A stretch of DNA of 22,191 nt, from contig JAWAHS010000005.1 of the NCBI GenBank assembly GCA_038889075.1, positions 78,112 to 100,302 on the forward strand, written 5' to 3'. A model generated the notes under the pieces. It was not told the origin of the DNA. It worked only from the letters and a program-made list of their open reading frames with translations, and did not search any database. The DNA is from Ignisphaera sp. Its GTDB lineage: Archaea; Thermoproteota; Thermoprotei_A; Sulfolobales; Ignisphaeraceae. Shown here one piece after another: positions 187 through 19,082 of the stretch. Positions within the stretch are counted from its first letter, which is position 1, and each line of letters starts with the position of its first letter. The translations under genes and the position numbers were made by a program.

Positions 187-1371
187 TTGCCACCTAAGGT
201 TATTGTTGGTACTCTTATAATCAATACGCTACTTATGGCTATTAGTGGTATAACCTATCCAGTTATTCCACTGTATATTGTTGGTAGTGGTTTCGGTGTG
301 TTGACAGCTGGTATAGTAACATCTATTGCAAGCATTGCTAGTTTTTGCTCCCAAATTATGTGGGGCTACGTAAGCGATAGGATTAAAAGGCGTTCGAGGG
401 TGATGCTCTACGGCTCCATTATAATGCTGCTATTCTATACAGCTGGCGCTCTCCTATCTAATAATATCTTAGCTATACAACTCTCATACATATTCTCTAC
501 AATTGGTAGTGCTGCCGTGGGTGTAGCATCATATGCCCTGGTAGCCGATGTCGATCCTCATAATCTGAATAGAAATATGAGCATGTATTGGGCTGGAGGC
601 TCACTTGGCTGGGCTACACCTCTTCTATTTGCTGGATGGCTTCTTAAAACATATGGTATAGTGAGCATATTTACAGTTTCCCTTCTACTTTCAGTAATCG
701 TTCTAATTCTCACAGTAGTGCTGATGTCTATCGATAGAGGTATTGCTATAGTGAGCACTAAAAGGAGTGTATGGTCCTTGAAGCCTATTGGAAGGCTGTT
801 AAGAAATGGTGTGTTTTTAATCCTATACCTATCATCATTTATGTTTATGGTTGGCGATGTTATTAAAAACATCTATGTACCCCAGTACCAGGCATATAGA
901 ATTGGTCTGGGGGAATCTCTAGCTACATCTATACTAAGTCTTGCAAGCTGGTTTGAGATTCCAGCCATATTACTATTTGGCTATGTGCTGTATTCTATTG
1001 GTGCAACTACCGTATACATCGTAAGCCTAATATCAATGTCTCTCTACCTCTATCTCAACTCAGCTGTTGGAGGTCTTACTACAGCATCCATTGTAATGGC
1101 TAGCTATAGTATTGTATGGGCAAGCTATATCACATCGATTTCAGTCCTAGTACCGCTATCTGTAGATGAGGAAAACAGAGGGTTAGCACTAGGTTTAGTG
1201 AACTCAAATTTTGCACTAGCTAATATATTCTCCAACATTATACTAAGCTATATGGTGGCCATCCACGGATATGGCCAGACCTTCATATTTGTAGCAATAA
1301 TAATGTTTCTACTAGCAATAGCTGTAGCTATAACCATGCTCTACAGGAGATCCCCTTTAAGAGCATCATGA
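187..1371 (+). CDS. MFS transporter
   Basis: 394 aa with about 12 hydrophobic segments. MFS motif A-like GYVSDRIKRR follows TM2, and ENRGLALG lies in the C-terminal half. TTG start preceded by GAGGGT. Confidence 0.88.
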   Translation: MPPKVIVGTLIINTLLMAISGITYPVIPLYIVGSGFGVLTAGIVTSIASIASFCSQIMWGYVSDRIKRRSRVMLYGSIIMLLFYTAGALLSNNILAIQLSYIFSTIGSAAVGVASYALVADVDPHNLNRNMSMYWAGGSLGWATPLLFAGWLLKTYGIVSIFTVSLLLSVIVLILTVVLMSIDRGIAIVSTKRSVWSLKPIGRLLRNGVFLILYLSSFMFMVGDVIKNIYVPQYQAYRIGLGESLATSILSLASWFEIPAILLFGYVLYSIGATTVYIVSLISMSLYLYLNSAVGGLTTASIVMASYSIVWASYITSISVLVPLSVDEENRGLALGLVNSNFALANIFSNIILSYMVAIHGYGQTFIFVAIIMFLLAIAVAITMLYRRSPLRAS

Positions 1372-2425: not shown

Positions 2426-2566
2426 TGAGTGTGCACCGTAATACTAATACCATTCTCAAGTAGATGTTTAAATAAAAGCTTTGCTATACGGTAATACCCA
2501 GGTGTAGATAGAGTACAGCAGTATTTATCTATATATAGAATATATAGAAGATATGGCTAAATAAAT

Positions 2567-4438
2567 CTAAATATTTACTCCAAGCTTTACCGTGTATTTT
2601 CCTAGTCCTAGTTCCTCTATAACCTCCTTCCTAGGGACCCCATTTTCATCCCAGCCCATATATTCATAGTACTCCTTTAGCATAGGTTCTAGCTCAACTA
2701 TCTGACCCTTCGACCCTCCCTCTCTAAGGGGCTCTTCTAGAAATCTTTTTGGAAGTATGTCATGTACCCTTGTCACTCCATTTGCTATATTGAATAGCCT
2801 CTTTAGCGTAAATATTCTTTTTCCAATCTTTAGTAGATCTGGCACAGTTTTTCTAATTCCTGTAACATAGGTGTACAGCCCCGCTATGTGTGCAGGTGGT
2901 ATATCTACAAATTTGCATAGAACCATCGACTCTAGTATTTCACTCCACATCTCCATTGTTGCAACCATCCATCCCTTACCTCTGTATTCAAATCTATCAA
3001 CCCTCTCATATATTTTTAGGTCATGTACCCTCTGACCCTGTTCTATCCTAAAGAAAAGCCCATAGAGGTGGTCAGCCCCTCTATTGGAGGTCGCATACTG
3101 AAGACCGATACCCTTAAATGCCCTTGGGTCATGCATAGGCATTTCGGTTCCTTTTACATGCATACAGAGCTCCTCTGTACCCCTGCCGATGATTTTCGAT
3201 GCCTGTCTACAGCCTTCAGCAAGTATATTGCCAAATCCTATCCTCTTTCCAATCATCTCAATAAGCTTCACAGCAACCTCTTTATCACCCCATCTAAGCT
3301 CCATCCCACCAGTATCACTAACTGTAATTAATCCCTTCTCAAAGCATTCAATAGCCCACGCAATTGTGACACCTGTAGAGATTGTATCGATACCATATTT
3401 ATAGCACAGGTAATTGGCCTTTGCAAGGTAGCCGGGGTCGTCTATCATGAGAAGTGTTCCTAGAGATGCTATTGTTTCATACTCTGGAGCTCTAATCCTT
3501 CTACCGTCTACCTCAACTACTTTCCAGCACTTTACAGGACATGCCCAACAGCCATATACATCAACGACTATCTTCCTTTCCTTAAAACTCTGCCCTGTAA
3601 TGTTTCTATAGCCGCTAAATTCACCTAGCGTAAAGTTTTTAATAGGCATATCCCCATATTCATAGAACTCCTCAACCTCGCCAGCAGTGCCAAATGATGC
3701 TAGAATCTGTGCTGTTGGCGATGACATTATGAGTGGGAGTAGCCTTGAGAGCACACTTGAGACTCTTGAGACATCCTTCACCTTTATCTTCCCGCTACCC
3801 TTGACAGCTATGGCCTTCAGGTTCTTAGAGCCCATGACTGCCCCCATCCCAGTTCTACCACCTATTCTAGGGCCGTTTGGCTGGATGTCCGAGGCTATAC
3901 ATGCAATTCTAGATAGATTCTCACCTGCAGGACCAATAGCAGCAACCCTTATACTTCCATCACCGACCTCTTTTTTAATTGTTTCATCGGTTTCGAATAC
4001 ATCTAGCCCCCAGAGCTTAGAGGCATCCCTAAACTCTACAGACCCATTGTGAATAAAGAGGTATATTGGTGTAGATGATCTACCCCGAATTACTATACCG
4101 TCAAATCCGGCCTTCTTAAGCTCCGGCCCCCAGTAGCCAGATACATGGGACTCTCCCCAGGCCATAGTTAGAGGGGACTTGGAGGCAACAACATATCTAG
4201 CTGCTCCATATACTGGTGAGCCAGTGAGGGGCCCTGTCATAAATACTAGAATATTGTCTGGACTAAATGGATCTATCCTGGGGTCGGGTATCTCCTCAAC
4301 AATAATTTTTGCTGCTAGTCCTATACCCCCAAGAAACTCATCTATATCATTGTATTCTAGCTTCCTCTGCTCAACCCTCTCTCTAGATAGATCAACATAT
4401 AGAATGCTACCAACATAGCCATAGTACTCCTGGGTCAC
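2567..4438 (-). CDS. aor: Tungsten-type aldehyde:ferredoxin oxidoreductase (AOR family)
   Basis: 623 aa. Family motifs SKSPLT, GPELKKAGFDG, GPAGEN, GRTGMGAVMGSKNLKA, CWACPVKC (CxxCxxxC 4Fe-4S), PEYET, YGIDTIS, DPR, RGADH, LCKF and C-terminal YYEYMGWDENGVP. Confidence 0.95.
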   Translation of the reverse strand: MTQEYYGYVGSILYVDLSRERVEQRKLEYNDIDEFLGGIGLAAKIIVEEIPDPRIDPFSPDNILVFMTGPLTGSPVYGAARYVVASKSPLTMAWGESHVSGYWGPELKKAGFDGIVIRGRSSTPIYLFIHNGSVEFRDASKLWGLDVFETDETIKKEVGDGSIRVAAIGPAGENLSRIACIASDIQPNGPRIGGRTGMGAVMGSKNLKAIAVKGSGKIKVKDVSRVSSVLSRLLPLIMSSPTAQILASFGTAGEVEEFYEYGDMPIKNFTLGEFSGYRNITGQSFKERKIVVDVYGCWACPVKCWKVVEVDGRRIRAPEYETIASLGTLLMIDDPGYLAKANYLCYKYGIDTISTGVTIAWAIECFEKGLITVSDTGGMELRWGDKEVAVKLIEMIGKRIGFGNILAEGCRQASKIIGRGTEELCMHVKGTEMPMHDPRAFKGIGLQYATSNRGADHLYGLFFRIEQGQRVHDLKIYERVDRFEYRGKGWMVATMEMWSEILESMVLCKFVDIPPAHIAGLYTYVTGIRKTVPDLLKIGKRIFTLKRLFNIANGVTRVHDILPKRFLEEPLREGGSKGQIVELEPMLKEYYEYMGWDENGVPRKEVIEELGLGKYTVKLGVNI

Positions 4439-4459
4439 CGCCCTGCACCACTTCGTTCA

Positions 4460-5116
4460 TCAGCCAAGTCGATACAGCTTATAGTAGAGCTCAACCTCCC
4501 TCTCTGGTATAACCGGAGGCTCCCTACCAAGAGCCATAGAGACAAACTGAGCCATAGCAACCTCTTCAAGTGTTTCAGCAACTGCCTCAGCCTCATATAG
4601 ATTGGCCCCCATAGCAATAATTCCGTGGTTCTGGAGAATAAGGGCCCTTGACCCAAGGGCAGCTTTTTCAGCTACAAGCTTTGCAAGCTGATCGGTCCCT
4701 GGAAAAGCAAATGGTACAATTTCAATCCTTCTTAAAACCATGACAGCCTCCACCGTGATGGGCTTTAAACCAATGCCCGCTAGAGCAAGCCCTAGTGTAA
4801 CAGGGTTATGGGCATGGACAACAGCATTAACATCTTGTCTAACTCTATATATAGCTGCATGAATGGGCCACTCAATTGATGGTCTGCCAAAACCATCAAC
4901 TATATTACCATCTAGATCAAGCTTTATTAGATCGTCGGGTACAAGTTCACCCTTATATATACCACTTGGTGTTATCCAAAACTCTTTTGAATTGGGGATT
5001 CTAGCACTAACATTACCTCCTAGAGCGGATACAAGCCCTCTACTAAATAGATTTTTCATAACCTTACAGATGTCATTCTTTATCTGCTCCTCTGGAATCT
5101 CAAGGCCTTCACTCAA
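4460..5116 (-). CDS. Class II aldolase/adducin family protein (FucA-like ketose-1-phosphate aldolase)
   Basis: GGNVS, TPSG, PSIEWPIH (catalytic Glu), VHAH and LQNHG Zn-ligand motifs. The ORF track starts at 5125 (GTG), but TTG at 5116 follows an AGGTG SD and is the likelier start. Lies 21 nt upstream of aor, so probably co-transcribed. Confidence 0.9.
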   Translation of the reverse strand: MSEGLEIPEEQIKNDICKVMKNLFSRGLVSALGGNVSARIPNSKEFWITPSGIYKGELVPDDLIKLDLDGNIVDGFGRPSIEWPIHAAIYRVRQDVNAVVHAHNPVTLGLALAGIGLKPITVEAVMVLRRIEIVPFAFPGTDQLAKLVAEKAALGSRALILQNHGIIAMGANLYEAEAVAETLEEVAMAQFVSMALGREPPVIPEREVELYYKLYRLG

Positions 5117-5140
5117 ATTAAACACCTAATGTATAGGGAA

Positions 5141-5187
5141 TAATGTTTAAGTTTTTAAAGCTTGCTACTAAAACTATAGAATAGTAG
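5141..5187. promoter_or_regulatory. Putative bidirectional TATA box between aldolase-aor and moaD, with adjacent inverted repeat
   Basis: TTTTTAAA at 5152-5159 is roughly equidistant (about 36-39 nt) from both divergent starts. CTACTA-N11-TAGTAG at 5165-5187. Confidence 0.4.
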
Positions 5188-5197
5188 GATAGGAGCC

Positions 5198-5479
5198 ATG
5201 GTAAATGGAATACCCATTACCATAAAGATACTACCGCCATTTACACCTAATTCAAAAAGCATTGAAAAAACATTCTACTTTGAGGAAAACCCATCTATCA
5301 TAGACCTTCTGACCACAGCCTCTAATAACGGCATCCTTAAGCTAGATAGTGTTGTGGAATGCAATGAAATTAGAGATGGTGTTGTGGTGCTAGTTAACGG
5401 TAAGACGGTATTCGATGTAAGGCATAGACTTGATAAAGGCGATAGAGTAGTAGTAATGCCTCTAGTACCGGGAGGCTAA
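5198..5479 (+). CDS. MoaD/ThiS ubiquitin-like sulfur carrier (SAMP-like)
   Basis: 93 aa beta-grasp pattern VVLVNGK...LDKGDRVVVMPLVPGG ending in di-glycine. MoaD-like genes commonly lie next to aor. Confidence 0.9.
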   Translation: MVNGIPITIKILPPFTPNSKSIEKTFYFEENPSIIDLLTTASNNGILKLDSVVECNEIRDGVVVLVNGKTVFDVRHRLDKGDRVVVMPLVPGG

Positions 5480-5561
5480 TATTTTACTATTTGACTAAAA
5501 CTGATGTATTTTGTGTACCACACTGTGTAGTAGTGCTATAGCATCTATGGTGTGCTGTGAA

Positions 5562-6344
5562 ATGATTCAAATAGAGAATGAAATTCTTGAGAGATTAGAT
5601 AGGGTACTGGGTGGAGGTATACCTCAGATGATCTTTATAGATATAGATGGGGTGCTAACGCTATCTAGGGGCAGCTATACCCTAGATCTCGATGCGATTG
5701 AATTGATGAGGAGAGCTGAGAACCTGGGGGTACCGGTATGCCTTACCTCAGGCAACAGCTACCCAACGGTACTAACTCTCCAGAGATACCTAGGATTGAC
5801 ACCCATATTTATAGCTGAAAATGGTTGTATAGTTCAAATTGAAAGACGCCTCATCAAGCTATGCAGAGAATCGCTGGACAGCATAGTTGATAAGATTTCA
5901 GAGATATTTAAGCTTCAGCCATCTGATAGTAATATGTATAGACTGTGTGACCGTGCCTTCAGGGTCCCCCAGGATCTAAAGGCTGATATTTCAAGGGTTA
6001 GAGAGTTAGAGAAGAGAATTGCTGAGCTCTTTCCAGATATCCATGCCATGTATACGGGCTATGTTCTACATATATACCCTAGAGGGTGTGGCAAGGGGAG
6101 AGCTATGGAGATTCTTGCCAAGGAGATAGGTGTAGATCTCCTAAAGTCTATAGCTATAGGTGATAGTGTTACAGATATAGATATGCTTGAGACTGCCGGT
6201 CTAGCTGTAGTTGTTGGTGATGCCGATAGTGAGGCTAAAGAGTCTGCAGATATAGTCCTGCCATATAGAGCCTCAGAGTCAACAAAATTCTTTCTAGGAA
6301 CACTAATTAGATATGTCGATAAAAAATTGAGAAGTAGAATTTAG
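5562..6344 (+). CDS. HAD-IIB (Cof-type) phosphatase, archaeal phosphoglycolate phosphatase (TA0175-like) family
   Basis: Motif I DIDGVLT, motif II SGNS, IAENG, motif III K in GKG, motif IV GDSVTD. The ORF track starts at 5511; ATG 5562 with GGTG upstream is preferred. Stop overlaps the rbcL stop by 4 nt (convergent). Confidence 0.85.
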   Translation: MIQIENEILERLDRVLGGGIPQMIFIDIDGVLTLSRGSYTLDLDAIELMRRAENLGVPVCLTSGNSYPTVLTLQRYLGLTPIFIAENGCIVQIERRLIKLCRESLDSIVDKISEIFKLQPSDSNMYRLCDRAFRVPQDLKADISRVRELEKRIAELFPDIHAMYTGYVLHIYPRGCGKGRAMEILAKEIGVDLLKSIAIGDSVTDIDMLETAGLAVVVGDADSEAKESADIVLPYRASESTKFFLGTLIRYVDKKLRSRI

Positions 6345-7678
6345 ATTGGCTTAACATACCCCCATTTTTCAAGAGCCCTTCTAAGCTCTGCATGTTTCTC
6401 AGCATACTCATCTAGCGGAATACCCTTTGCTATAGCCTCTAGCGCTTGTCTAACGGCAGCCGCTCCTGCTCTAGGGCCATCCGGATGGCCAACAACACCT
6501 CCACCAACCTGTATAACAATGTCCTTACCCATAACCTTTACAACTTCCGGTAGTGTGCCTGGGTGAAGCCCTCCTGAGGATACAGGTAGCGCAGGTTTTA
6601 TGTGATAGAATGGCTGTTCTAGGTGAAAGACATCATTTTCATCTGGTTTAAAGTTCGCATCCCTAAGTACCTTACAGTATCTTATTACATCAACAGTCTT
6701 TGCCTCTAGCTTTCCAACCTCCGGCGTCCCCACATGAAGCTGGTCAACACCGATTACTCTAAACAGTTTTGCTAGTGTAAACATAGAGATGCCATGATGT
6801 GGATTTCTAGTTATAGCGGCATGCATAGCCCTGTGGGCATGTATGGCAAGCTTGTACTCTTCGGCAAGGTCTCTTATATATGTGAGGGCGGACCACCCAC
6901 ATATAACAACATCAACCATAATGTATGGGTTGCCGTAGTCTGCTACAAGTTTTAGCCTCTTTTCCATCTCTCTAACATCGGCAGTTATATTTGCAAACCA
7001 GACCTTTCTTTCACCGGTTTCCTTTTCAACCCTATCAATAACCTTCATTATAGCTTTTGCCCTTGCCTCAAACCGGCAGTAGCTGGGGCTAGCAAGATTC
7101 TCATCATCCTTTATATAGTCTAGCCCTCCACTGAGAATATCATATGCAAGCTTCTCAACCTCATCAGGGCTATATCCAACCTTTGGCTTAGGAACTGTTC
7201 CAACAATAGGCCTATCATAAACTTTAAATATATCTCTAACACCATGAAGACCTCTATAGGGTCCCTTAAAGAACTTTATAAAGTCGTAAGGGAGATACAT
7301 ATCCTCAACTCTAAGCCACTTAGCCCTCCTCATACCAAATATATTTCCAGCAACACTAGCTAGAAACCCAGGTATATTATTTTCCTCAAATAGCTCTACT
7401 GGATAGGCAATCCTCACCAGATAGGATCCATCACCAAGATCTGTAAACTGGTATGCCTTGCCCATGAGCCTATTCAATCTGTTCTGATCATACCATGTGT
7501 ATAGAGTCGTCCATGTACCAACACTACTTTCAGCTGCTACACCACCTGCAGCATCCTCAATACTAAAACCTTCTGCAGGTGTAATTCTAAATACCAGAAT
7601 TACATCTGATTTTGGATCTGGTCTGTAATCTTTTTTAATAAATAACGGATACGGTTCAAACTCAACCTTCTTAGACAT
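6341..7678 (-). CDS. rbcL: Form III ribulose-1,5-bisphosphate carboxylase (RuBisCO large subunit)
   Basis: 445 aa. AAESSVGTWT (E60/T65), GNIFGM (N123), KPK (K175/K177), GLDYIKDDE (K201/D203/E204), HAHRAMH (H294/R295), LHVGT (H327), VGKLE (K334), SSGG (S379/G381), GGG (G403/G404), spinach numbering. This full active-site set argues against a RuBisCO-like protein. AGGTG SD. Confidence 0.96.
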   Translation of the reverse strand: MSKKVEFEPYPLFIKKDYRPDPKSDVILVFRITPAEGFSIEDAAGGVAAESSVGTWTTLYTWYDQNRLNRLMGKAYQFTDLGDGSYLVRIAYPVELFEENNIPGFLASVAGNIFGMRRAKWLRVEDMYLPYDFIKFFKGPYRGLHGVRDIFKVYDRPIVGTVPKPKVGYSPDEVEKLAYDILSGGLDYIKDDENLASPSYCRFEARAKAIMKVIDRVEKETGERKVWFANITADVREMEKRLKLVADYGNPYIMVDVVICGWSALTYIRDLAEEYKLAIHAHRAMHAAITRNPHHGISMFTLAKLFRVIGVDQLHVGTPEVGKLEAKTVDVIRYCKVLRDANFKPDENDVFHLEQPFYHIKPALPVSSGGLHPGTLPEVVKVMGKDIVIQVGGGVVGHPDGPRAGAAAVRQALEAIAKGIPLDEYAEKHAELRRALEKWGYVKPI

Positions 7679-7711
7679 ATTCTCGCACCTGGAGACGGTA
7701 TCTCTAATTTG

Positions 7712-7745
7712 TCTAAAAAGCCCTCCGTAACTACTCGAGTATTAC
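7712..7745 (-). promoter_or_regulatory. Putative rbcL promoter: TATA-like TTTTTAGA plus upstream palindromic operator
   Basis: Perfect palindrome TACTCGAGTA at 7732-7741 flanked by GTAA/TTAC, just upstream of a T-rich box about 35 nt before the rbcL ATG. Confidence 0.35.
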
Positions 7746-7773
7746 TGGTGTTACAGAATAATATTATGGTGAT

Positions 7774-9177
7774 CTAGACCACTACTGTTTTTATTCCTAG
7801 CAGTCTACATGCATCGGCAATTACTTCAACATAGTCACCGTGTATCATACTTGCATGGTGTACGAATCCCTCTTCAATCAATGTTCTATATATCTTATCA
7901 AGATCATTCACCTCTACCCATGACCATGCTCCCCTTACCCTAGGTTCTACATCAACTATCCTACCTCTTGTTATAAACATCTTGAATTCACCATCGTATT
8001 CTACAAGCCTTGAAATTGTTACTGTGCCTGGCCTTACCACACCCTCTATAGTGCCATAGCTTCTATCGACTCCCACATCCCTATACATTATGCTGTGATA
8101 TGATAGTGTGCAGCCTGGCTGCATAAGTGCTGGAGGCGCATTTCCACAGTGCCATGCTAGAAACACATTGGGCTTCTCTGGATGTCTTATTGTCCAGTCT
8201 ATAAAGTGTGGCGGAGTTGTGTATAGAGATGCTGCATACTGGATAAGCATTGTGAGTACCCCATATATATCAACTTCGCACGACGACATTATACCTGACT
8301 CTGTTAATCTCGCTAAGATGTAGCATGGAGATATACCATAGTATCTCTGAATCTCAGTCCAGCACCTAAAACCTAAACCTGAAAGCTTTTCGCGCTCTAT
8401 TATACTCCTCAACACAGCCTCCAGCTTAGCCTGCCTATATAGTGCATCCTGCGGAATACCTGATACATCCACTTGCCTCTTCATCTCCTCAACGATTCTT
8501 GTAACAATCGGATCATCGTCTCTCAGCTTTCTAGCCTCTTCGACAACCTCTAAAAGCGTTGTATGGATAACCCTCTGGCCGAATTTCTCAACCATTTTAG
8601 CTTCATTAAATGTTACAGTCTCAAATCGTGTTGGTCTAGGTCCAATAAGCCCTACCCTAGCACCAATGAAGCTTCTAACTATTGAAGCAACTCTTACAAA
8701 GATATCGAACTGCCTCTTAAACTCGCTATCCTCAGGAAAGAGTATACCTCCAAATATGAATGGTATCTTCCTTCTATACAGTGCCGAGGCTAGCGATAGT
8801 GTACCGCAAAACGAATCTGATCTCCTAAAACCACCTGGAAGTATCGAAGGTTCTTTAGTAGCTACAATCATTATTGGGATTCTCCTAAAGTGTTCTGCAA
8901 CGAGTGCACCTGCAAGTTCATCACCAAAGGTTAGTGTTGCTATAAATATAGCATCAACACCTCTACTTCTAAATAATTCAACAACTCTATATCCATCTTC
9001 ATCATCGGTTACCAGACCCAGCTTTGTATCACTTTCACTCGGATAGATCAATTCAATCTGTGGAAACTCTCGTGCAATAACATCTATAAATCTCTTCTTA
9101 AGTTCTTGAGCCCATTTTTCATCAAATGGATACCTATGAAGTGGAACAAAACCTACAACAATTTTATTTTTTAACAT
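7774..9177 (-). CDS. L-fucose/L-arabinose isomerase family protein (FucI-like)
   Basis: About 467 aa. TFGDE, DSFCGTLS, RCW, CEVD, WHCGN, TISRL and HH motifs typical of the FucI/AraA-like fold. ATG 9177 follows an AGGTG SD (ORF track start 9189). Confidence 0.82.
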   Translation of the reverse strand: MLKNKIVVGFVPLHRYPFDEKWAQELKKRFIDVIAREFPQIELIYPSESDTKLGLVTDDEDGYRVVELFRSRGVDAIFIATLTFGDELAGALVAEHFRRIPIMIVATKEPSILPGGFRRSDSFCGTLSLASALYRRKIPFIFGGILFPEDSEFKRQFDIFVRVASIVRSFIGARVGLIGPRPTRFETVTFNEAKMVEKFGQRVIHTTLLEVVEEARKLRDDDPIVTRIVEEMKRQVDVSGIPQDALYRQAKLEAVLRSIIEREKLSGLGFRCWTEIQRYYGISPCYILARLTESGIMSSCEVDIYGVLTMLIQYAASLYTTPPHFIDWTIRHPEKPNVFLAWHCGNAPPALMQPGCTLSYHSIMYRDVGVDRSYGTIEGVVRPGTVTISRLVEYDGEFKMFITRGRIVDVEPRVRGAWSWVEVNDLDKIYRTLIEEGFVHHASMIHGDYVEVIADACRLLGIKTVVV

Positions 9178-9324
9178 AGTTTCCCCCACCTAAAAATGGT
9201 GTAAAAAATATTTAAATTTAACATGTAAAACCCCAGCAATCAAATTCGATATTTTAAAAGAAAATTGTTGGATTACGCCCTTCTCTATGAACACATTATA
9301 TACCTCTACTCTAATAGGGTTCGA

Positions 9325-9639
9325 ATGAGTCGGAGGAGGATATATAGGCAAGGTGATGTTATATTAGAAGAGATGGATGAGGATTGCGAACTTCGAGGTA
9401 GACTTGAAAAATATGGTAAACTGGTTTCAAATTACCTCGAGATCGCTGGCGAAACTGGAAACAAACATGTATTGTTAAATGCAAAAGTCTATAATAGATT
9501 TGATGAGGTGTATATTGTTCTAGATAAACATGGTGCTATGATGCATAAGCAGCATCCTCCACTAAAAATTGAACCTGGTATCTATAGGCTGAGGTTTATA
9601 CGCGATTGGCTACTGAGAGACTCTGAAACCCTCGATTAG
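9325..9639 (+). CDS. Conserved hypothetical 'RQGDV' protein
   Basis: YRQGDV...GETGNKH...HKQHPPLKIEPGIYR...D pattern, recalled from small proteins encoded beside DUF6745 genes. ATG 9325 preferred over TTG 9265. Confidence 0.7.
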   Translation: MSRRRIYRQGDVILEEMDEDCELRGRLEKYGKLVSNYLEIAGETGNKHVLLNAKVYNRFDEVYIVLDKHGAMMHKQHPPLKIEPGIYRLRFIRDWLLRDSETLD

Positions 9640-9678
9640 AACTTCAATTCCTATTTTTCACACACCATAGTGATTATC

Positions 9679-10698
9679 ATGTATTCTATAGAAAGACCAA
9701 ACTATATCCATGTTGGATTTGGTAAACCCTACACTAGAAGCTTTCACATAACCTTATGTACCGAATCCACATCAACGTGCATCAAGAGGGGTTATTATTA
9801 CGGATATACAATAGCAGCCAATATTGCCAGTGATGTATTTGACAACATTTTTATGGATATTGTAAAAGGGAAACCTATAAATGTATATAGATATAGCAAT
9901 AGAATATACTATGTTTATACATATTCCGATTCTCTATGGAGATTTCTAGAGCTATTAAGAGAGCTCATCTATAAAATGTACAGATACTGCAAAACAGATG
10001 AATGCATCTACTATATTGTTAACGATATTGTAAATAGATGTGGAGTATATCCAGAGAGTTGTAGCAATGCTGTAGAGAGATGGCTAGGCTATATTGATAG
10101 GATAATTAGAAGGTATAGCAATGCTGGTAGAAAAGCCTTATACACACGATTCTCCCAGAGAACGAGACTCTATCGAGCTAAGCTCTATCACTATTTTCCA
10201 ACAATTGCTACAATCCCTATATATAGGGTTAATAGCATGTACTATAGTAGCTGTATAGATGAATCGATGAATATACTGAGAAGATTCTACAGCAATAACG
10301 TAGCCCATAGATACTCAGACCGTATATGTAGTACTACCCATGCATATATATTTGCTACTACAGATCTATTTGCAATTACACCAAGTAATGTAGAGGCTAG
10401 CTATGGTGAAGACTGTATCATTAAATTTGGTGATCAGCATGTATTTATAGATGATTGCGATGAAAATGAAAAGCACGTGGTATTCAAGCTTATCAATGCA
10501 AACGCTAAAAACAACATGATATATAGAGTTAACTGGGTTTCGGTGTTGGGGTTAGATAAATATTCAAACCAGATATTCTTACACTATATACCACCAACTC
10601 TACTGCTACATAGTGTTAAGATATGTAGAGAATGGCTATTAGGTCTGGTAGACGATTTTGGTGTAAAGAACGATGGATATATTCTAATTGAGGTATAA
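9679..10698 (+). CDS. Hypothetical Tyr/Cys-rich protein with DUF6745-like C-terminus
   Basis: Long open frame with no antisense competitor. C-terminal QIFLHYIPP...ICREWLLGL resembles the (Y/F)LxVPP...AxxWxFGL tail of DUF6745-type proteins. ORF track start GTG 9670, ATG 9679. Confidence 0.6.
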   Translation: MYSIERPNYIHVGFGKPYTRSFHITLCTESTSTCIKRGYYYGYTIAANIASDVFDNIFMDIVKGKPINVYRYSNRIYYVYTYSDSLWRFLELLRELIYKMYRYCKTDECIYYIVNDIVNRCGVYPESCSNAVERWLGYIDRIIRRYSNAGRKALYTRFSQRTRLYRAKLYHYFPTIATIPIYRVNSMYYSSCIDESMNILRRFYSNNVAHRYSDRICSTTHAYIFATTDLFAITPSNVEASYGEDCIIKFGDQHVFIDDCDENEKHVVFKLINANAKNNMIYRVNWVSVLGLDKYSNQIFLHYIPPTLLLHSVKICREWLLGLVDDFGVKNDGYILIEV

Positions 10699-10752
10699 CG
10701 CTACACACAGCCTTTCCAGCATTGTCAATACTTTGGCGAAATCTATAAACCA

Positions 10753-11358
10753 CTAAACCATTTTCTCCACGTACTTTATCGGAGGCCTTAGTAGGAGAAG
10801 ACCTTCATTTGTTGGTATTACTGTTGATGCCCATCCCTCCTCAGACGCTCTCTTAATTATTGAGATGATTGTCCTTCTCGCCATATATGCATTATGGTAT
10901 ACCACTACACCATTCTCTCTAATTCTTTTCTTAACAATATCAAACATCTCTACATATATATCCTTATCTATATCTATAAATATAAAATCTATTGCATTTT
11001 CACTAAAATTGCTCCTCACATATTTAAGTGCATCCCCATATACTGTGGAAACATCTGTACGATTTTTAGGTACAGCATTTAAAACCTCTTTAAGTATTTC
11101 AAATCTTTCTCTATTCCATTCGATTGCATATAAACGGCTTTTTGTATAGGAATTCTCTAGGGCTGCTAGAAGCCAGATTGTAGAGTAGCCTATCCCGGCA
11201 CCTGCATCGATTGCTACAAAATCTGATTTTCCATGGGTTAACATATACAGTATTGAATACAATGCTATACCGTCATCCCTACCTATTCTTGGAATTGAAA
11301 GTTCATCCGATTTCCTTTCCACATAATTCAGCACGTCGAGTATCCTCATCGATAACAT
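10753..11358 (-). CDS. Class I SAM-dependent O-methyltransferase (COMT/CCoAOMT-like)
   Basis: IDAGAGIGYST SAM motif, AIEWN, GDAL, DFIFIDIDK and GVVVYHN. Start uncertain (11406, 11358 or 11349). Confidence 0.85.
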   Translation of the reverse strand: MLSMRILDVLNYVERKSDELSIPRIGRDDGIALYSILYMLTHGKSDFVAIDAGAGIGYSTIWLLAALENSYTKSRLYAIEWNRERFEILKEVLNAVPKNRTDVSTVYGDALKYVRSNFSENAIDFIFIDIDKDIYVEMFDIVKKRIRENGVVVYHNAYMARRTIISIIKRASEEGWASTVIPTNEGLLLLRPPIKYVEKMV

Positions 11359-11498
11359 GCTGGACTCCAAATAAAGAACTCCAATAAACCATATATGCTT
11401 TTCCACCTACATCGTTATCTATACACATATACCATTATCTACAAAACTGTAACCTAATAACGTCAAACCTACGTAACCAAATTTATTTAGAACGTTTG

Positions 11499-11547: not shown

Positions 11548-11748
11548 CTGTTCCAACTATCTATTTAGGATGTACCTTTCATTTATGGACATTTGAAAGG
11601 ATTAGAGTTTTCTCCCACCTCGATTAAGTAAATGTTGCACTGCTACATCCACATGCATTAGGGGGATGAAACTTTTGACTAGGTGTCTATATTAATTATT
11701 CTCCAAAATACCTCTAAAAATCTTAGATGAAAATCAGAGTTGGTTTAT

Positions 11749-13254
11749 ATGCGTGAAATAGGTGTTGTTGCATCCAGCGCTCGTATCTCTTCTGCCCCTA
11801 TACTTATCTATAAAGATGCTGAACATCTAGCCAAAGAAGAATCTCTAGTTATTGTAAAGGATGCCAAATTTGGAAAAACCTATCTAGGTGTTCTAAGGTG
11901 GCTTAGTAAGTACGATCCTCTCTTGACCCATACCCAGAGAGCTGCCATTATTGAAAGACCCGAGCTTGCTGAAGAGAGTATCGATCTACCTTTTGAAGCT
12001 TCCTTTGTTAGAATTCTCGGCGAGGTAGTTGATGGAAGACTAAAACCTCCTTCCTCTCCACCTACCCCGAGATCAAAGGTATACATAGTTGAATCTTCAA
12101 AGGATTTACAACTTAACCTTGGATACGGTCTTGAGGTAGGCATACATAAATACAGTGGCTTGGTGATACCACTCAATCCAGAAGCACTAAGATACCACAT
12201 AGCTATCGTTGGAACTACTGGTACGGGTAAATCAAGACTTGTAAAGGCTATAATTGATGAGGTGATAGCTAAAACTGATTGGAGAATTATAGTATTCGAT
12301 CACACAGGCATGGACTATGTCAAGTACTATCGCGATAAAGTGGTAAACGCTGAGGAAATAGCTATCGACATAGATACAGTTTCACAGGGTTTAACCAATG
12401 CTGTAAGCTCTATGAGAGAACATATAGAGAACTATGTACCGATTACCCTTCTATATTACATTCTATGCATAGATATGAAAAAGGATGCTAAGGTATGTTT
12501 AAACCAGGATGAAAACCACATACTTAGACTCCTAGAATCTTCTAATATAGACATCGGTAGAATTGAAGAACTCATGCTAAATATCTCTAGGAGTAGCCTA
12601 TGGGATGCAGACAGAGTTGCATACATGTCCTATCTTGTTGCAAGCGTTCTCGGTGCTCGAAGACCCACACCTGAAAAGCTTAACCTCTATATAAAATTGT
12701 ATGGCAGAATGTATATTAATAGACTAAACAAGATAAGATACAGGGTAACAGATATACTTGATGCAGTATACAGAAATAGGATTACTGTTATAGATCTCAG
12801 CATTGTTGAAACAGAGGTTAGAAGAGTTATTGTCAAAGGCGTTCTCTCAAAAATATGGGAAATTGTGGAAGAAACTAGGAATCCACAAAACATTCTAGTC
12901 ATTATAGATGAAGCACACAACTATGCATGTGATAGAGGGTGCTACCCCTCCAACACCATGATTGAAAAAACGCTTAGAGAAGGTAGAAAATGGGGGATAG
13001 GCACAATATTGGCTAGCCAAAGAATAATAGACTTTTCACCGGATGTTAGAAATAATACAAACACCGTATTCTTTAGTAGACTTCAAACACCATATGATTT
13101 CCAACAACTACAAAACTTTATCGATTTAGCTGGCATAGGAACCGAAACTCTATCTCTCCTAGAAACACGGGAGTTCTTCTTTGCAGGACTTGGAAATCCA
13201 TTAAGGTACCCGATGCTTATACAGGTGAGGGCTGTTGGAGAACCACCTCAATGA
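11749..13254 (+). CDS. herA: HerA/FtsK-family ATPase (HerA-like helicase with N-terminal HAS barrel)
   Basis: N-terminal HAS-barrel-like region (IGVV...YLGVL...PPTPRSKVY), HIAIVGTTGTGKS Walker A, VFDHTG, IIDEAHNY Walker B, REGRKWGIG arginine finger and ASQR. Confidence 0.9.
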   Translation: MREIGVVASSARISSAPILIYKDAEHLAKEESLVIVKDAKFGKTYLGVLRWLSKYDPLLTHTQRAAIIERPELAEESIDLPFEASFVRILGEVVDGRLKPPSSPPTPRSKVYIVESSKDLQLNLGYGLEVGIHKYSGLVIPLNPEALRYHIAIVGTTGTGKSRLVKAIIDEVIAKTDWRIIVFDHTGMDYVKYYRDKVVNAEEIAIDIDTVSQGLTNAVSSMREHIENYVPITLLYYILCIDMKKDAKVCLNQDENHILRLLESSNIDIGRIEELMLNISRSSLWDADRVAYMSYLVASVLGARRPTPEKLNLYIKLYGRMYINRLNKIRYRVTDILDAVYRNRITVIDLSIVETEVRRVIVKGVLSKIWEIVEETRNPQNILVIIDEAHNYACDRGCYPSNTMIEKTLREGRKWGIGTILASQRIIDFSPDVRNNTNTVFFSRLQTPYDFQQLQNFIDLAGIGTETLSLLETREFFFAGLGNPLRYPMLIQVRAVGEPPQ

Positions 13255-14392
13255 AGTCATAGAGGAAGTTATAGGAGTATCACCTGAAATCGTCGATAAA
13301 GCTTTGAATAGAACAATTGACAAACTCTACAAGGAGGTTTCTAAGATTATTGAAATAGGAAATGAGATTAGAAGAGCTATTGAATCGAGAGGTAGCTTTA
13401 CTATAAAACTGATGGGTAGACCCATCGATCTCTGCTATTATACTATAGATTCCAGCTTTACTGCCCCTGCAATAGAGCTTATAGGTGGCTACCTAAGCAT
13501 TGCTGTTGTCAGCTATACAAGTTATGGTAAGACCTGTGGAAAAACAGGGATAGAATCTCGAGCATATGTAGATCTAAATTTTGTAGAAGATCTGACGAGT
13601 ATCTACGCCAAATACTATGAACGTAGAACAGCACTAGAACTTCTAAATGCTAAGAAGAGAGGTGAGGTAAATTTCGAGGTTCTTTTACTCGATGGCGAGA
13701 TAATTCCAAGGATACTTCCAAGCTGGAGAACCAGAGAATCAAAAAAGAGTAGACTATTCCAGCTAATCATAAATATAACAGAGGATATAATGGAACTCGC
13801 AGACAGAACGGATACCGCCATCGTTGGTATTCTAAAAAGGAGCTACTCTAGAGATATTGTCAACATTCTCGGGTTTAAGGAACTTAAAATGAGCGACAGA
13901 GCAATCCTAAGCCTTGTCCTAAAACCAGGTGAATATATAGTATTTGGATCGTATGTCGATCTAAGAGATGAACTTTTAAAGCTTAGAGCTAGAGGAGATG
14001 CAGATGATGAATGGCTTAGAGCTAGAATACCGTGGTACGACGGTATAGTTCAGAGTATGGCTGGACATACGGTAAAGCTTGCATTCTATAGAGCTGAAAA
14101 AACAATACACCCTACTGCAACAAAAATGGAGTATGTTACAAGTAGCTCATTAGATGAAGATACCCTTATATCAAGTATCATGAAGATAAGCGTAGGTACG
14201 GGCATTCCCATACCAATAGACTATACCGATGCATTATCGGATGTATCAGGCAGTTTAAAATATACAATATATCAAAAAATGATAGCTGAGTTATCTAAGA
14301 AACTTGCTAATGACTCTGATAAAGTATCGATATTCCTCTCACTTATGAATCCCGAGAAAATGGGGATAGTGATATATAGGCTAAAGATGTAG
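13235..14392 (+). CDS. nurA: NurA-family nuclease
   Basis: RNase H-like NurA motifs YTIDSS, YYER, LLLDGEI, VGILKRS and GIPIPIDYTD. Overlaps herA by 20 nt with a GGTGAGG SD, indicating translational coupling. Confidence 0.82.
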   Translation: MENHLNEVIEEVIGVSPEIVDKALNRTIDKLYKEVSKIIEIGNEIRRAIESRGSFTIKLMGRPIDLCYYTIDSSFTAPAIELIGGYLSIAVVSYTSYGKTCGKTGIESRAYVDLNFVEDLTSIYAKYYERRTALELLNAKKRGEVNFEVLLLDGEIIPRILPSWRTRESKKSRLFQLIINITEDIMELADRTDTAIVGILKRSYSRDIVNILGFKELKMSDRAILSLVLKPGEYIVFGSYVDLRDELLKLRARGDADDEWLRARIPWYDGIVQSMAGHTVKLAFYRAEKTIHPTATKMEYVTSSSLDEDTLISSIMKISVGTGIPIPIDYTDALSDVSGSLKYTIYQKMIAELSKKLANDSDKVSIFLSLMNPEKMGIVIYRLKM

Positions 14393-16760: not shown

Positions 16761-17756
16761 CTACTGTAATGGGAGTTTTACAGCATTTTTCCTTCTACTA
16801 CTAATGTATATTGCCTCTATTATTTCTTGTGCTTTTACTGCATCATCAACTGTTATGGTTGGCTTTCTACCTCTCTGAACAGCATCTATCATATCTTCAA
16901 GAGCATTTCTAATAGTGACCTGTGGGGGGCTGGGTTTTATCCACGCCTTTCTATCCCTTGAATAATATAGTATACCCATCGGTGTTCTTAAAGCTGCTCC
17001 TCTATCCCCATATACCTCCAGTGGAGTTAGTGATGGATTTTCTGCTACCTGTATCCACCCACTTTCTAATATTGATGGAGTTCCCCTAGAGAATAGCACT
17101 ATACCTATGCCAAAATCATCAACTTCGTACGCTCTCGTGAGATTTACAGATATGCCCTGTACCTCTACAGGTTCATCATTCAATATATACCTTAATAGAT
17201 CTGCTGCATGTATACCAAGATCTAGTAATCCTCCACCTCCAGCCAGTTCTTCTATTCCAAACCATTGAGTCCATTCCTTAAACCATTTATCTACAGCTGC
17301 CGAGTGGGCTATTCTTACCCTAGCCATGTAGATGTTACCAATCTCATTTGTGGTTATAATCTCCCTGAGTTTTACTATATCAGGATTAAATCTAGAGTTG
17401 AAACCTGTTGTAAATAGTATTCCATGCTTTTCTACAATACTCTTTATCTCCCTAGCCATCCGAACATTCAATCCTATGGGTTTTTCGCAAAATACATTTA
17501 TATTATTTTCAGCAAAGATCTTGACATACTCTAGATGCCTAACGGTTTCACTATCTATAACAACTAAATCCGGCTTCCTTCTAATAAGTGAATCTACAGA
17601 TGGGAGAAGCTCTAGACCATATTTATTTGCATAGAATAGACCTCTATCTCTATTGTCATCAAATGCACCAACTATTTCAATATCACTTCTAGATTTAAGT
17701 AGCTCTACATGGCCTGGTGCATGAACATGTGCAAAACTTACGATACCTACTCTCAA
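16761..17756 (-). CDS. Gfo/Idh/MocA family oxidoreductase
   Basis: FCEKP, GFNSRF and GGGGLLDLGIH. Atypical N-terminal SFAHVHA replaces GxGxxG. Starts 2 nt after the upstream paralog's stop. Confidence 0.9.
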   Translation of the reverse strand: MRVGIVSFAHVHAPGHVELLKSRSDIEIVGAFDDNRDRGLFYANKYGLELLPSVDSLIRRKPDLVVIDSETVRHLEYVKIFAENNINVFCEKPIGLNVRMAREIKSIVEKHGILFTTGFNSRFNPDIVKLREIITTNEIGNIYMARVRIAHSAAVDKWFKEWTQWFGIEELAGGGGLLDLGIHAADLLRYILNDEPVEVQGISVNLTRAYEVDDFGIGIVLFSRGTPSILESGWIQVAENPSLTPLEVYGDRGAALRTPMGILYYSRDRKAWIKPSPPQVTIRNALEDMIDAVQRGRKPTITVDDAVKAQEIIEAIYISSRRKNAVKLPLQ

Positions 17757-17758
17757 CT

Positions 17759-18883
17759 TTATGCCCTCTCCAACCCATGTAGAACAGAATTGTTTACTAT
17801 AGATCTAACCTCATCCGGTATGTATATCTCGATATCCTCTCCACCTCTACTAGCAGACTGATATAGAGCATCAAGAATTAGCATTTCATATACGCTCTCC
17901 CTAGGGTCTATAGGGCTATCAAGCCCCTTCATTACCGCCTCTACGAATTTGCCTATCTTATCACTCCACACATCTTTTTGAGGTAAAACTACTCTGGATG
18001 TGGTCATGTATCCATTTTCATCTCTAAAGATTTCGAGTGGATAAAGCTTTATACCACCTTTTAAGCCAAGGAAGAATGGTCTACCGAGATCATCATTATG
18101 CATAGCCCACGTCACCTTAAGCCATAGAACAGCATTATTCTTGAGTACTATTTTTCCAATTGCAAAATCTTCAACATTGAATCTGCTAACATCCCACGAA
18201 CCCCAGCTACCGACGACAGTAGCTGCTTCCTCATCTTTTCCAAGTGTTGCATATATATGTCCACTGACCCGTACTACCTCTGGATACCCGAGTATATACA
18301 TTGCGTTATCAATAGCATAGCAGCCTAGATCCAATAAAACCCCTCCTCCAGATAGCTCCCTATCTATAAATGTTAACCGTGGTGGTATAGCTCTTCTTCT
18401 CTCCCGACCTTCAACAGTCTCACCATAATAGAATCCACCGAGAAGCCCAGAGGCAACAAACCTTCTAGCTGCCATAATTTCACATGAGAATCTGTTTTGA
18501 AAACCTACCATTAAAATTCGCTTGTATTGTATGGCTGCACGCAGCATCTCTAGTGCCTCCGTAGCTGAAATCGCCATAGGTTTTTCAACAAGTACATGAA
18601 TACCTTTTTTAAGTGCATACACTGTTGGCGCTGCATGGTATTTATGAGGGGTGCAGATACTTACACCATCCATTGGTATTCTATCAAACATATCTTCATA
18701 TCCTCTAAATACATTTTCTTCAGGAATTCCGTATATCTTGGCAAATCTTCTAGCCCTCTCGACATCTATATCAGCAACAGCAACAAGATCTACATATGGA
18801 TTCTGTCTATAGTATTTAGCGTGTGCTTCAGCTATACCACCAGCTCCTACAAACCCGATTTTAACTCTTTCTATTCTAGTCAT
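17759..18883 (-). CDS. Gfo/Idh/MocA family oxidoreductase
   Basis: GAGGIA Rossmann motif, ICTPHKYH, VEKP, GFQNRF and GGGVLLDLGCY. Confidence 0.92.
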   Translation of the reverse strand: MTRIERVKIGFVGAGGIAEAHAKYYRQNPYVDLVAVADIDVERARRFAKIYGIPEENVFRGYEDMFDRIPMDGVSICTPHKYHAAPTVYALKKGIHVLVEKPMAISATEALEMLRAAIQYKRILMVGFQNRFSCEIMAARRFVASGLLGGFYYGETVEGRERRRAIPPRLTFIDRELSGGGVLLDLGCYAIDNAMYILGYPEVVRVSGHIYATLGKDEEAATVVGSWGSWDVSRFNVEDFAIGKIVLKNNAVLWLKVTWAMHNDDLGRPFFLGLKGGIKLYPLEIFRDENGYMTTSRVVLPQKDVWSDKIGKFVEAVMKGLDSPIDPRESVYEMLILDALYQSASRGGEDIEIYIPDEVRSIVNNSVLHGLERA

Positions 18884-19082
18884 ATATGGAACCCAATATA
18901 GGTTGTGAAATCATTAATTAAGTTTGGAGAGTGTAACTAAAAGCGTATGATAATGTTAGGCAGATACCAAACCACAATCTAATGCTCCAACTTCCAAAGG
19001 TTAATGATTTCCTGTACTTAAATCTAAACTTTTAAGGTTGTGCTTCTAGGGATTGTATTTACATAACTATCTGGGATGTAGA

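Follow-up and report, generated by a model that had tools for sequence, protein, structure and literature searches.

A form III RuBisCO among sugar isomerase, aldolase and FGGY kinase genes in Ignisphaera, and a possible sugar-fed source of its substrate

Archaeal form III RuBisCO has so far been understood as the end of nucleotide-ribose salvage. The 22,191-nt stretch of Ignisphaera sp. DNA described here (assembly GCA_038889075.1, contig JAWAHS010000005.1, positions 78,112-100,302), called the window below, carries the gene for such an enzyme, rbcL, in a setting of sugar metabolism. Together with two kinase genes further upstream, the locus suggests that free sugars reach ribulose 1,5-bisphosphate (RuBP), the substrate of RuBisCO, by a route not yet described. 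An earlier note on this DNA had claimed six genes at 2567-9189, and all six open reading frames are there:

2567..4438, minus strand: tungsten-type aldehyde:ferredoxin oxidoreductase (AOR), AOR clade; Pfam AFOR_N 254.7 bits, AFOR_C 438.8 bits.
4460..5125, minus strand: FucA-like class II (metal) aldolase, ALDO below, 21 bp upstream of the AOR gene; PF00596 171.7 bits.
5198..5479, plus strand: MoaD/ThiS-like beta-grasp protein of 93 aa; weak match, ThiS 22.8 bits (cut-off 22.5).
5511..6344, plus strand: HAD-IIB phosphatase of the Ta0175/PH1421/TK2301 family, HAD below; TIGR01487 134.8 bits (cut-off 122.75), Hydrolase_3 103.3 bits.
6341..7678, minus strand: form III RuBisCO large subunit, RbcL; TIGR03326 668.6 bits (cut-off 497.45).
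7774..9189, minus strand: FucI/AraA-family-like sugar isomerase, upstream of rbcL on the same strand; Fucose_iso_C 59.5 bits.

The genes lie in three transcription units, as the earlier note had it: the FucI-like gene and rbcL on the minus strand, the MoaD-like and HAD genes on the plus strand, and ALDO and AOR on the minus strand. MoaD and HAD converge on rbcL, with a 4-bp overlap, and ALDO and AOR run divergently from MoaD. AT-rich TATA-like boxes, which we take to be promoters by their consensus, are found upstream of both rbcL and the FucI-like gene, and in the ALDO/MoaD intergenic stretch. Because one such box sits in the 95-bp gap between the FucI-like gene and rbcL, the layout does not demonstrate co-transcription of these two.

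Metatranscriptome contigs from one run, 97-99% identical, cover all six genes: AOR (2520-4159), ALDO (4130-5116), MoaD, HAD and the 3' part of rbcL (5333-7342), and the 5' part of rbcL with the FucI-like gene (7313-9132). This is weak evidence, as such contigs prove neither one transcript nor an expression level, and DNA carry-over is possible. Contig depths in this metatranscriptome, X14, cannot rank genes, so their lower values on the flanks are disregarded here. No usable cover of the locus came from runs X23 and X24. Its DNA is present in hot-spring metagenome runs of several studies.

RbcL matches solved enzymes over its full length (689 bits to 8dht, 663 bits to the Thermococcus kodakarensis enzyme 1geh). 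Aligned with 8dht and relatives, it keeps KPK, KDDE, HRAMH, LHVGT..GK, SSGG and GGG..GHP, which we take to hold the catalytic residues, and it is predicted to be catalytically complete. The TIGR03326 score (668.4 bits when the whole genome is searched) and these active-site motifs reject a RuBisCO-like protein. At 82% identity to the enzymes of genomes with the canonical pathway, G172 for example, it does not look like a divergent oddity.

The HAD protein is the genome's only TIGR01487 copy above cut-off. Its start is uncertain (5511-5628), with the profile match beginning at residue 39. The best PDB matches are 1wr8 and 1kyt, and DIDG aligns to motif I. The family member TK2301 of T. kodakarensis acts on 2-phosphoglycolate (2-PG), RuBP, ribulose 5-phosphate (Ru5P) and erythrose 4-phosphate, with a kcat/Km of 126 s-1 mM-1 on RuBP, its best substrate, and 17.4 on 2-PG, according to the accessible part of PMC11032457. 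This makes the HAD a credible candidate for a RuBP phosphatase, as had been suggested.

The AOR has both AFOR domains and is nearer to AOR than to FOR, WOR5 or GAPOR. Its nearest solved structures are 9mqx (435.6 bits) and 1aor (408.4 bits), with FOR at 285 bits and WOR5 at 273 bits. A FOR identity was rejected on these scores, and a GAPOR identity on a model score of 45.7 against 1300. Three further AOR paralogues, 37-40% identical, are found in the genome.

ALDO belongs to the PF00596 superfamily, and its best PDB matches are the fuculose-phosphate aldolases 6btd and 4c24. All NCBIfam equivalogs, FucA included, stay below cut-off (PRK06833 120.8 of 264, FucA_Meth 113.2 of 250). The MoaD-like protein scores 26.3 bits with moaD_arch, also below cut-off; it probably serves cofactor maturation of the AOR.

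The FucI-like gene probably starts at the ATG at 9177, which gives 467 aa as in the database copy. Of the three domains of FucI (N1, N2 and C), Fucose_iso_C alone was matched, and there is no match to PDB sequences at E<=0.01. Most of the 904 homologues are from archaea, and the source records call them 'L-fucose isomerase-like'. A sulfoquinovose pathway was rejected. Its sole basis is a weak, full-length match to the sulfoquinovose isomerase model SftI (169 of 700), and no other family model of that pathway was matched in family scans of the window and the upstream 20 kb.

The proteins of the window were compared with the surroundings (about +/-9 kb) of 40 rbcL genes in genomes of the same order. 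Only G058, G128 and G093, with RbcL 90-93% identical, have the complete six-gene block as well. The earlier note had allowed for chance clustering; trivial chance can be dropped, as the block recurs, but the recurrence is limited to these three close relatives. What is conserved more widely are parts of the block. Two modules, each conserved independently of the other, make up the cluster: module A, the MoaD-like gene with ALDO and AOR, and module B, rbcL with HAD. They adjoin only in four closely related genomes, that of the window included.

Module A holds together well. A window-type ALDO orthologue, 71-92% identical, occurs in 10 genomes of the genus (the window's among them) and always adjoins an AOR orthologue. 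The MoaD-like gene lies divergent from ALDO and AOR in all seven further loci, including that of G017, a RuBisCO-negative genome of another family. This conservation bears out the suggestion that aldolase and AOR work as a unit. In six of the ten genomes module A lies away from rbcL and HAD, as it does in G017.

Module B is a matter of the genus. HAD adjoins rbcL in all 13 other genomes of the genus whose contigs reach far enough. In 10 of the other members rbcL and HAD (56-62% identical) are co-directional, and AOR, MoaD and the window-type ALDO are not there; in the species group of the window HAD is inverted and converges on rbcL. Outside the genus no rbcL has HAD as its direct neighbour; G057, G056, G036 and G001 have weak HAD homologues at a distance of 3-9 kb. 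One genome, G004, has a different string on a single strand, with gaps of 40-230 bp: FucI-like (67%), a paralogous class II aldolase (35%), rhamnulokinase-like, RbcL and HAD. The branched node proposed in the earlier note is borne out in part: isomerase, aldolase and RuBisCO/HAD are linked again in G004, in another arrangement, but ALDO and AOR stand beside rbcL in one species group only.

The HAD family is found 3-11 kb from rbcL or from ribose-1,5-bisphosphate (R15P) isomerase in three families: f2 (G056, G036, G046), f3 (G057, G002, G037, G139, G047, G120, G198) and f7 (G007, G040, G070, G029, G050). In twelve of these genomes, all but G036, G046 and G057, the HAD gene shares a contig with R15P isomerase at a distance of 3.7-11 kb, which hints at a wider tie to pentose-bisphosphate metabolism.

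If the RuBisCO works, something has to supply RuBP. AMP phosphorylase and R15P isomerase were said to be missing from the window, and they are missing from the whole genome too (25 contigs, 99.58% complete). It has no match to the AMP phosphorylase model TIGR03327 at E<=0.001, and its highest score with the R15P isomerase model TIGR00511, 230.4, stays below the cut-off of 314.1. The sole eIF2B-like gene is of the MtnA type (TIGR00512 381, cut-off 279). There is also no match to PF00485, the phosphoribulokinase (PRK) family. Because all three are missing, the canonical pentose bisphosphate pathway, judged by gene content, cannot run in this genome, and the earlier proposal that it supplies the RuBP falls with it. 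RpiA and transketolase are present, and a ribulose-phosphate epimerase is marginal at best. Ru5P is therefore available, yet nothing known turns it into RuBP here.

This is a property of the family. Of 201 genomes sampled from the order, 95 have RuBisCO, 74 have AMP phosphorylase and 84 have an R15P isomerase that passes the cut-off. For the family of the window, f1, the figures are 16, zero and zero out of 25. Outside f1, R15P isomerase accompanies RuBisCO in 75 of 78 genomes, the exceptions being two incomplete genomes (63% and 68% complete) and G041. The sample also holds a Desulfurococcales-like complete genome whose AMP phosphorylase gene is split by two in-frame TGA codons (G081:C1:1430323-1431814).

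A pair of FGGY kinase genes lies 11-14 kb upstream of the cluster, at C5:67452-70442, outside the span of the earlier note. The upstream 20 kb holds, in order, a RhaB-like kinase (C5:67452-68954), directly followed by a second FGGY kinase called FGGY2 below (C5:68964-70442), a LarA-like racemase, a xylulokinase-like gene (L073:11810-13345), a transaldolase/FSA-like gene and a sugar ABC transporter. The RhaB-like kinase scores 447 against a cut-off of 528 with the rhamnulokinase model TIGR02627. FGGY2 is an FGGY family member (FGGY_N 38.3 bits, cut-off 28.8; FGGY_C 34.7 bits, cut-off 27) that fits no equivalog; the best is XylB at 87.7 of 380. Its nearest solved relatives are SePSK and AtXK-1 (E 4.5e-17). 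These are FGGY kinases from a cyanobacterium and from chloroplast stroma. D-ribulose is phosphorylated by SePSK in vitro and specifically stimulates the ATPase of this enzyme (both from the available text of PMC4880283).

FGGY2 follows RuBisCO closely. Of the 201 genomes of the order 22 have it, and every one of these is RuBisCO-positive; the lineages that bear it are few and related, so this count is not a statistical test. Within the genus, 14 genomes have both and two have neither. Only one of the 27 genomes of family f8 has RuBisCO, and FGGY2 is found in that one. The RhaB-like kinase is not as specific: it occurs in 26 of 201 genomes, five of them RuBisCO-negative.

The kinase is often a direct neighbour as well. 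In seven genus genomes FGGY2 abuts the HAD gene of the rbcL-HAD pair; in one it comes directly after rbcL, and in three it is no more than 5 kb away. Two Acidilobaceae genomes, also without AMP phosphorylase and R15P isomerase, have rbcL, a xylose-isomerase-like TIM-barrel gene, a RhaB-like kinase and FGGY2 within 8 kb. Module A meets the same kinases: ALDO, AOR, RhaB-like and FGGY2 follow each other in G012 and G176, the order is RhaB-like, FGGY2, ALDO, AOR in G198, and three metagenome contigs have FGGY2, ALDO, AOR. All three pairwise neighbourhoods are thus seen in different lineages: A with B in the species group of the window, A with the kinases, and B with the kinases. The FGGY kinases 11-14 kb upstream are a real comparative-genomic link between the modules. 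A branch around ribulose phosphates, as the earlier note had imagined it, gains comparative support in this way, but through kinases which that note did not cover.

A few side observations stand by themselves. The LarA-like nickel-pincer racemase (C5:70449-71735, equal to L073:10450-11736; 430 of 460 bits) directly follows FGGY2 in the species group. The 304-aa TIM-barrel protein (PF01261; L034:8107-9021 in G016, own copy C7:43032-43940) adjoins rbcL in G016, G068, G107 and both Acidilobaceae genomes; it could be a ketose epimerase or isomerase belonging to this network. Single in-frame TAG codons are found in the FGGY2 orthologue of the closest relative (G058:C2:48365-49828) and a second RhaB-like copy in the own genome (G000:C16:2443-3933). 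These may be pseudogenes, assembly errors or cases of read-through.

Two wider collections, of species genomes and of metagenome contigs, were scanned with an alignment of nine FGGY2 sequences. Where the kinase is at least 40% identical, RbcL lies in the fetched flank of 10 of 24 species-genome loci and 16 of 38 metagenome loci, the latter partly being the same species from several samples. Below 40% the counts are 0 of 19 and 0 of 13. Since these distant homologues are untied to RuBisCO, the association is limited to the Thermoproteota-type clade.

Within that clade it extends to rather different RuBisCOs. Five metagenome contigs have RbcL and FGGY2 co-directional and 34-72 bp apart, with an RbcL that is 41-43% identical to that of the window and keeps all checked motifs. 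They represent two lineages, 83-84% identical to each other in RbcL. A third lineage at 56% identity, L114 (Bathyarchaeia), has a xylulokinase-like gene and RbcL converging on FGGY2, and L206 has FGGY2 followed by RbcL. Among the five contigs above, L189 has RbcL, FGGY2, a canonical FGGY kinase and a FucI-like gene (54% identical), with a DeoC/LacD aldolase. In L187, another of the five, RbcL and FGGY2 are followed by a canonical three-domain L-fucose/D-arabinose isomerase, FucI, with a RhaB-like kinase nearby. The known products of FucI are L-fuculose and D-ribulose. Its presence in a string with RuBisCO is hard to connect except through D-ribulose. L187 also has a LarA-like gene nearby, 44% identical to that of the Ignisphaera genome. 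On the Bathyarchaeia contig L127, FGGY2 is followed by a HAD-IIB gene (TIGR01487 158 bits), and then by a Nudix ADP-sugar hydrolase-like gene (L127:3928-4476).

The reading favoured here, to which we give about even odds (0.5), is that of a composite sugar-catabolic locus. The FucI-like enzyme would convert an aldose, D-arabinose-like or another sugar that yields ribulose, to D-ribulose. Two FGGY kinases would phosphorylate D-ribulose to RuBP in either order, by way of ribulose 1-phosphate (Ru1P) or Ru5P, with FGGY2 as the RuBisCO-specific step. RuBisCO would then carboxylate RuBP to two molecules of 3-phosphoglycerate (3-PGA). Ru1P would be the branch point, from which ALDO may make dihydroxyacetone phosphate (DHAP) and glycolaldehyde; alternatively, ALDO may split fuculose 1-phosphate or rhamnulose 1-phosphate to give lactaldehyde. 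The AOR would oxidise the aldehyde to an acid while reducing ferredoxin. HAD could be a valve, returning RuBP to a monophosphate, or a remover of 2-PG. We infer all substrates and the direction of flux from the genes.

A bolder proposal is that FGGY2 is a natural RuBP-forming kinase unrelated to PRK, acting as a Ru1P 5-kinase or a Ru5P 1-kinase. The locus would then hold every step of the 'Ru1P shunt', so far only a synthetic design for carbon-conserving photorespiration (Trudeau et al. 2018, PMC6298115); no enzyme is known for its kinase step. In the part of that paper at hand, the steps are 2-PG phosphatase, conversion of glycolate to glycolaldehyde, FucA-type condensation with DHAP to Ru1P, a Ru1P 5-kinase, and RuBisCO. 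Here HAD would serve as 2-PG or RuBP phosphatase, a reversible AOR would interconvert glycolate and glycolaldehyde, and ALDO would join glycolaldehyde and DHAP to Ru1P or split it again. This is tentative, and its odds are clearly poorer than those of the composite locus as such.

A fair number of observations weigh against the favoured reading. We know of no FGGY kinase that acts on a sugar phosphate. More than 20 kinases were tried for Ru1P 5-kinase activity by Trudeau et al., and none had it, going by the accessible portion of PMC6298115. In the species group of the window the kinases lie 11-14 kb from the cluster, and synteny at the level of the genus may be largely inherited rather than selected. 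AMP phosphorylase and R15P isomerase are both present in one Bathyarchaeia genome where FGGY2 adjoins rbcL, so the kinase link is not restricted to genomes without the canonical route. Of the genomes with distant FGGY2 homologues, 6 of 11 haloarchaeal and 0 of 9 bacterial ones have RuBisCO, and the constant neighbour of these homologues (34-38% identical in haloarchaea) is a FucA-like aldolase. The TIGR01487 HAD family is present in 164 of the 201 genomes of the order, including RuBisCO-free families such as f13 (26 of 26); being nearly universal there, it is not a RuBisCO accessory as such. Module A with a RhaB-like kinase is found in RuBisCO-negative G017 and therefore works without RuBisCO, which fits an ordinary fucose/rhamnose-type pathway. 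The racemase after FGGY2 suits a route from lactaldehyde to lactate.

Several of these points converge on the main rival, which is that two unrelated functions share one carbohydrate island. One would be a bacterial-type 6-deoxyhexose pathway of isomerase, RhaB-like kinase, FGGY2, ALDO, AOR and LarA-like racemase, taking L-fucose or L-rhamnose through a ketose 1-phosphate to DHAP and L-lactaldehyde, and on to lactate. The other would be a separate RuBisCO/HAD pair, next to it by descent and island structure. The RuBP of this pair would have an unrecognised or promiscuous source, such as R15P converted by the MtnA-type isomerase, or phosphoribosyl pyrophosphate, which is heat-labile. This explains module A, the RhaB-like kinase and LarA well. 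The RhaB-like kinase scores 447 of 528 with the rhamnulokinase model, it occurs without RuBisCO in five genomes, and in G017 it does so along with module A. The racemase, transporter, xylulokinase-like and transaldolase-like genes share the same 20 kb, the six genes are juxtaposed in only four genomes, and the partners of the distant FGGY2 homologues are FucA-like aldolases instead of RuBisCO. What an island does not explain is why FGGY2 is restricted to RuBisCO-positive genomes, why it adjoins rbcL in at least five arrangements, including strings with RuBisCOs only 41-43% identical, and why a canonical FucI follows RbcL and FGGY2 in L187. It would also leave RuBisCO without a substrate source in 17 genomes. 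On balance two unrelated functions seem rather unlikely, though this is the alternative to beat.

A narrower idea is that HAD is a repair phosphatase for RuBisCO by-products, either 2-PG or a misfire bisphosphate, with the rest of the cluster unrelated. CbbY in Calvin-cycle operons removes such a misfire bisphosphate. The HAD protein passes the cut-off of TIGR01487, a model named 'phosphoglycolate phosphatase', and its gene follows rbcL co-directionally in 10 genus genomes. Ignisphaera is also listed, in the part of PMC11032457 seen, among RuBisCO-bearing genera without a TK1734-type phosphatase. The same genera are strictly anaerobic, however, and TK2301 accounts for only 16-24% of cellular 2-PG phosphatase activity (PMC11032457, same part). 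With the family so common where there is no RuBisCO, a pure repair role is unlikely.

The scenario of the earlier note fares worse. It let RuBP from the pentose bisphosphate pathway go either to RuBisCO or, through HAD, to Ru1P, which ALDO would split into DHAP and glycolaldehyde for oxidation to glycolate by AOR. The preference of TK2301 for RuBP favours this, although which phosphate TK2301 removes is not stated in the available part of PMC11032457. So do the adjacency of HAD and rbcL throughout the genus, the conserved pairing of ALDO and AOR, and the FucA-like nature of ALDO, which is 34% identical to a bona fide halophile Ru1P aldolase.

The likeness to halophiles goes little further. ALDO scores 106.8 bits with the halophile Ru1P aldolase model NF053831, far below its cut-off of 300, which does not support an assignment to that type. 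HAD is not of the type of the halophile RuBP phosphatase, which belongs to HAD_2 (PF13419) and not to Hydrolase_3. The two have motif-level similarity only, with a BLASTP E of 0.01. The haloarchaeal HAD gene in this comparison runs 4 bp into the beginning of the gene for a bona fide Ru1P aldolase (387 bits), and was equated with the orthologue of the characterised enzyme by the operon description in the available part of PMC9700705. A Ru1P aldolase above cut-off was found in none of the 11 haloarchaeal genomes with distant FGGY2 homologues, and in 15 of 61 genomes in the family of G208. With no AMP phosphorylase, R15P isomerase or PRK to make the RuBP, and with ALDO and AOR away from rbcL and HAD in six genus genomes, the scenario is quite improbable.

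A 'DHAP shunt' for 5'-methylthioadenosine or 5-deoxyribose is disfavoured: 6btd is the best PDB match of ALDO and the genome has MtnA, but ALDO keeps company with sugar kinases and ABC transporters, and in the loci compared neither MtnA nor any other gene of nucleoside salvage was matched next to it.

The rest of the window adds some context. To the left of the AOR gene in window coordinates lies a transporter:

187..1371, plus strand: MFS transporter; MFS_1 106.3 bits, weak full-length match to Nuc_H_symport at 37.5 bits.

It is syntenic in the two closest relatives with enough contig, and a role in sugar or nucleoside uptake is possible. On the other side, 9265-11406, between the FucI-like gene and HerA, holds two AT-rich hypothetical open reading frames (124 and 342 aa, no family match) and a class I methyltransferase, at a GC content of about 0.35. 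In G058, the closest relative, NurA/HerA comes directly after the FucI-like gene, so this segment looks like a strain-specific insertion. An overlapping pair of HerA-like ATPase and NurA-like nuclease genes follows at 11740-14392, kept but inverted in G058. At 16761-18883 and 19053-19943 there are two tandem GFO/IDH/MocA oxidoreductases and an EamA transporter, syntenic in G058 and possibly part of further sugar metabolism.

Family f1 keeps a conserved, intact RuBisCO and has none of the three enzymes known to form RuBP; the constant neighbours of this RuBisCO are sugar kinases and isomerases. If FGGY2 does make RuBP, this would be a new RuBisCO-dependent pentose catabolic pathway, and a second, non-homologous solution to RuBP synthesis. 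Form III RuBisCO would gain a sugar-fed route independent of AMP and PRK, from an aldopentose through D-ribulose and RuBP to two 3-PGA. It would also supply the missing Ru1P 5-kinase for the proposed carbon-conserving photorespiration bypass. A full-text literature search, with most subscription journals outside its coverage, found no description of a link between RuBisCO and an FGGY kinase. Among the papers listed for Ignisphaera and RuBisCO none deals with gene context either, judged by titles and the openings of abstracts.

RuBisCO-dependent pentose catabolism is not new, and the finding is best seen as a variant of it, with FGGY2 as a new enzyme activity if it forms RuBP. The pentose bisphosphate pathway of Thermococcales consists of AMP or nucleoside phosphorylase, a kinase for ribose 1-phosphate, R15P isomerase and form III RuBisCO. 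It is summarised in PMC9700705, as far as that text was available. Here too a heterotrophic archaeon has a bona fide form III RuBisCO that presumably turns pentose-derived RuBP into 3-phosphoglycerate. The AMP phosphorylase and an R15P isomerase above cut-off are absent, however, from the genome and from the 25 family members, and the gene neighbours are sugar isomerases and FGGY kinases instead of nucleotide enzymes.

The haloarchaeal non-carboxylating pentose bisphosphate pathway uses RuBP phosphatase, Ru1P aldolase and glycolaldehyde reductase (Sato et al. 2022, PMC9700705, in the part seen). Both systems have a HAD, a FucA-like aldolase and an aldehyde-converting enzyme close together, and Ru1P is a plausible shared intermediate. 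The differences are that the HAD is of type Hydrolase_3/IIB here and HAD_2 there, that ALDO is below the family cut-off, and that HAD and ALDO are not in one operon. The Ignisphaera genome also has RuBisCO and no R15P isomerase above cut-off, and an oxidising AOR takes the place of the NADH reductase.

Bacterial pathways for L-fucose/D-arabinose and L-rhamnose run through FucI-FucK-FucA and RhaA-RhaB-RhaD, followed by an aldehyde dehydrogenase. Escherichia coli degrades D-arabinose via D-ribulose 1-phosphate to DHAP and glycolaldehyde. The isomerase, ketose 1-kinase, class II aldolase and aldehyde oxidation are shared with the present locus. A ferredoxin-linked tungsten AOR instead of an NAD aldehyde dehydrogenase, the second, divergent FGGY kinase, and the embedded RuBisCO and HAD are not.

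PRK and RuBisCO are combined in the Calvin cycle and in the reductive hexulose-phosphate pathway of methanogens. As in those routes, a kinase would make RuBP directly for RuBisCO. The candidate here comes from the unrelated FGGY family, and there is no PRK-family gene.

The 'Ru1P shunt' is similar in that each designed step has a candidate in the Ignisphaera genome: HAD, AOR in reverse, ALDO, FGGY2 and RbcL. That shunt is a design; the candidates here belong to a natural locus in an anaerobe, and their roles are predicted.

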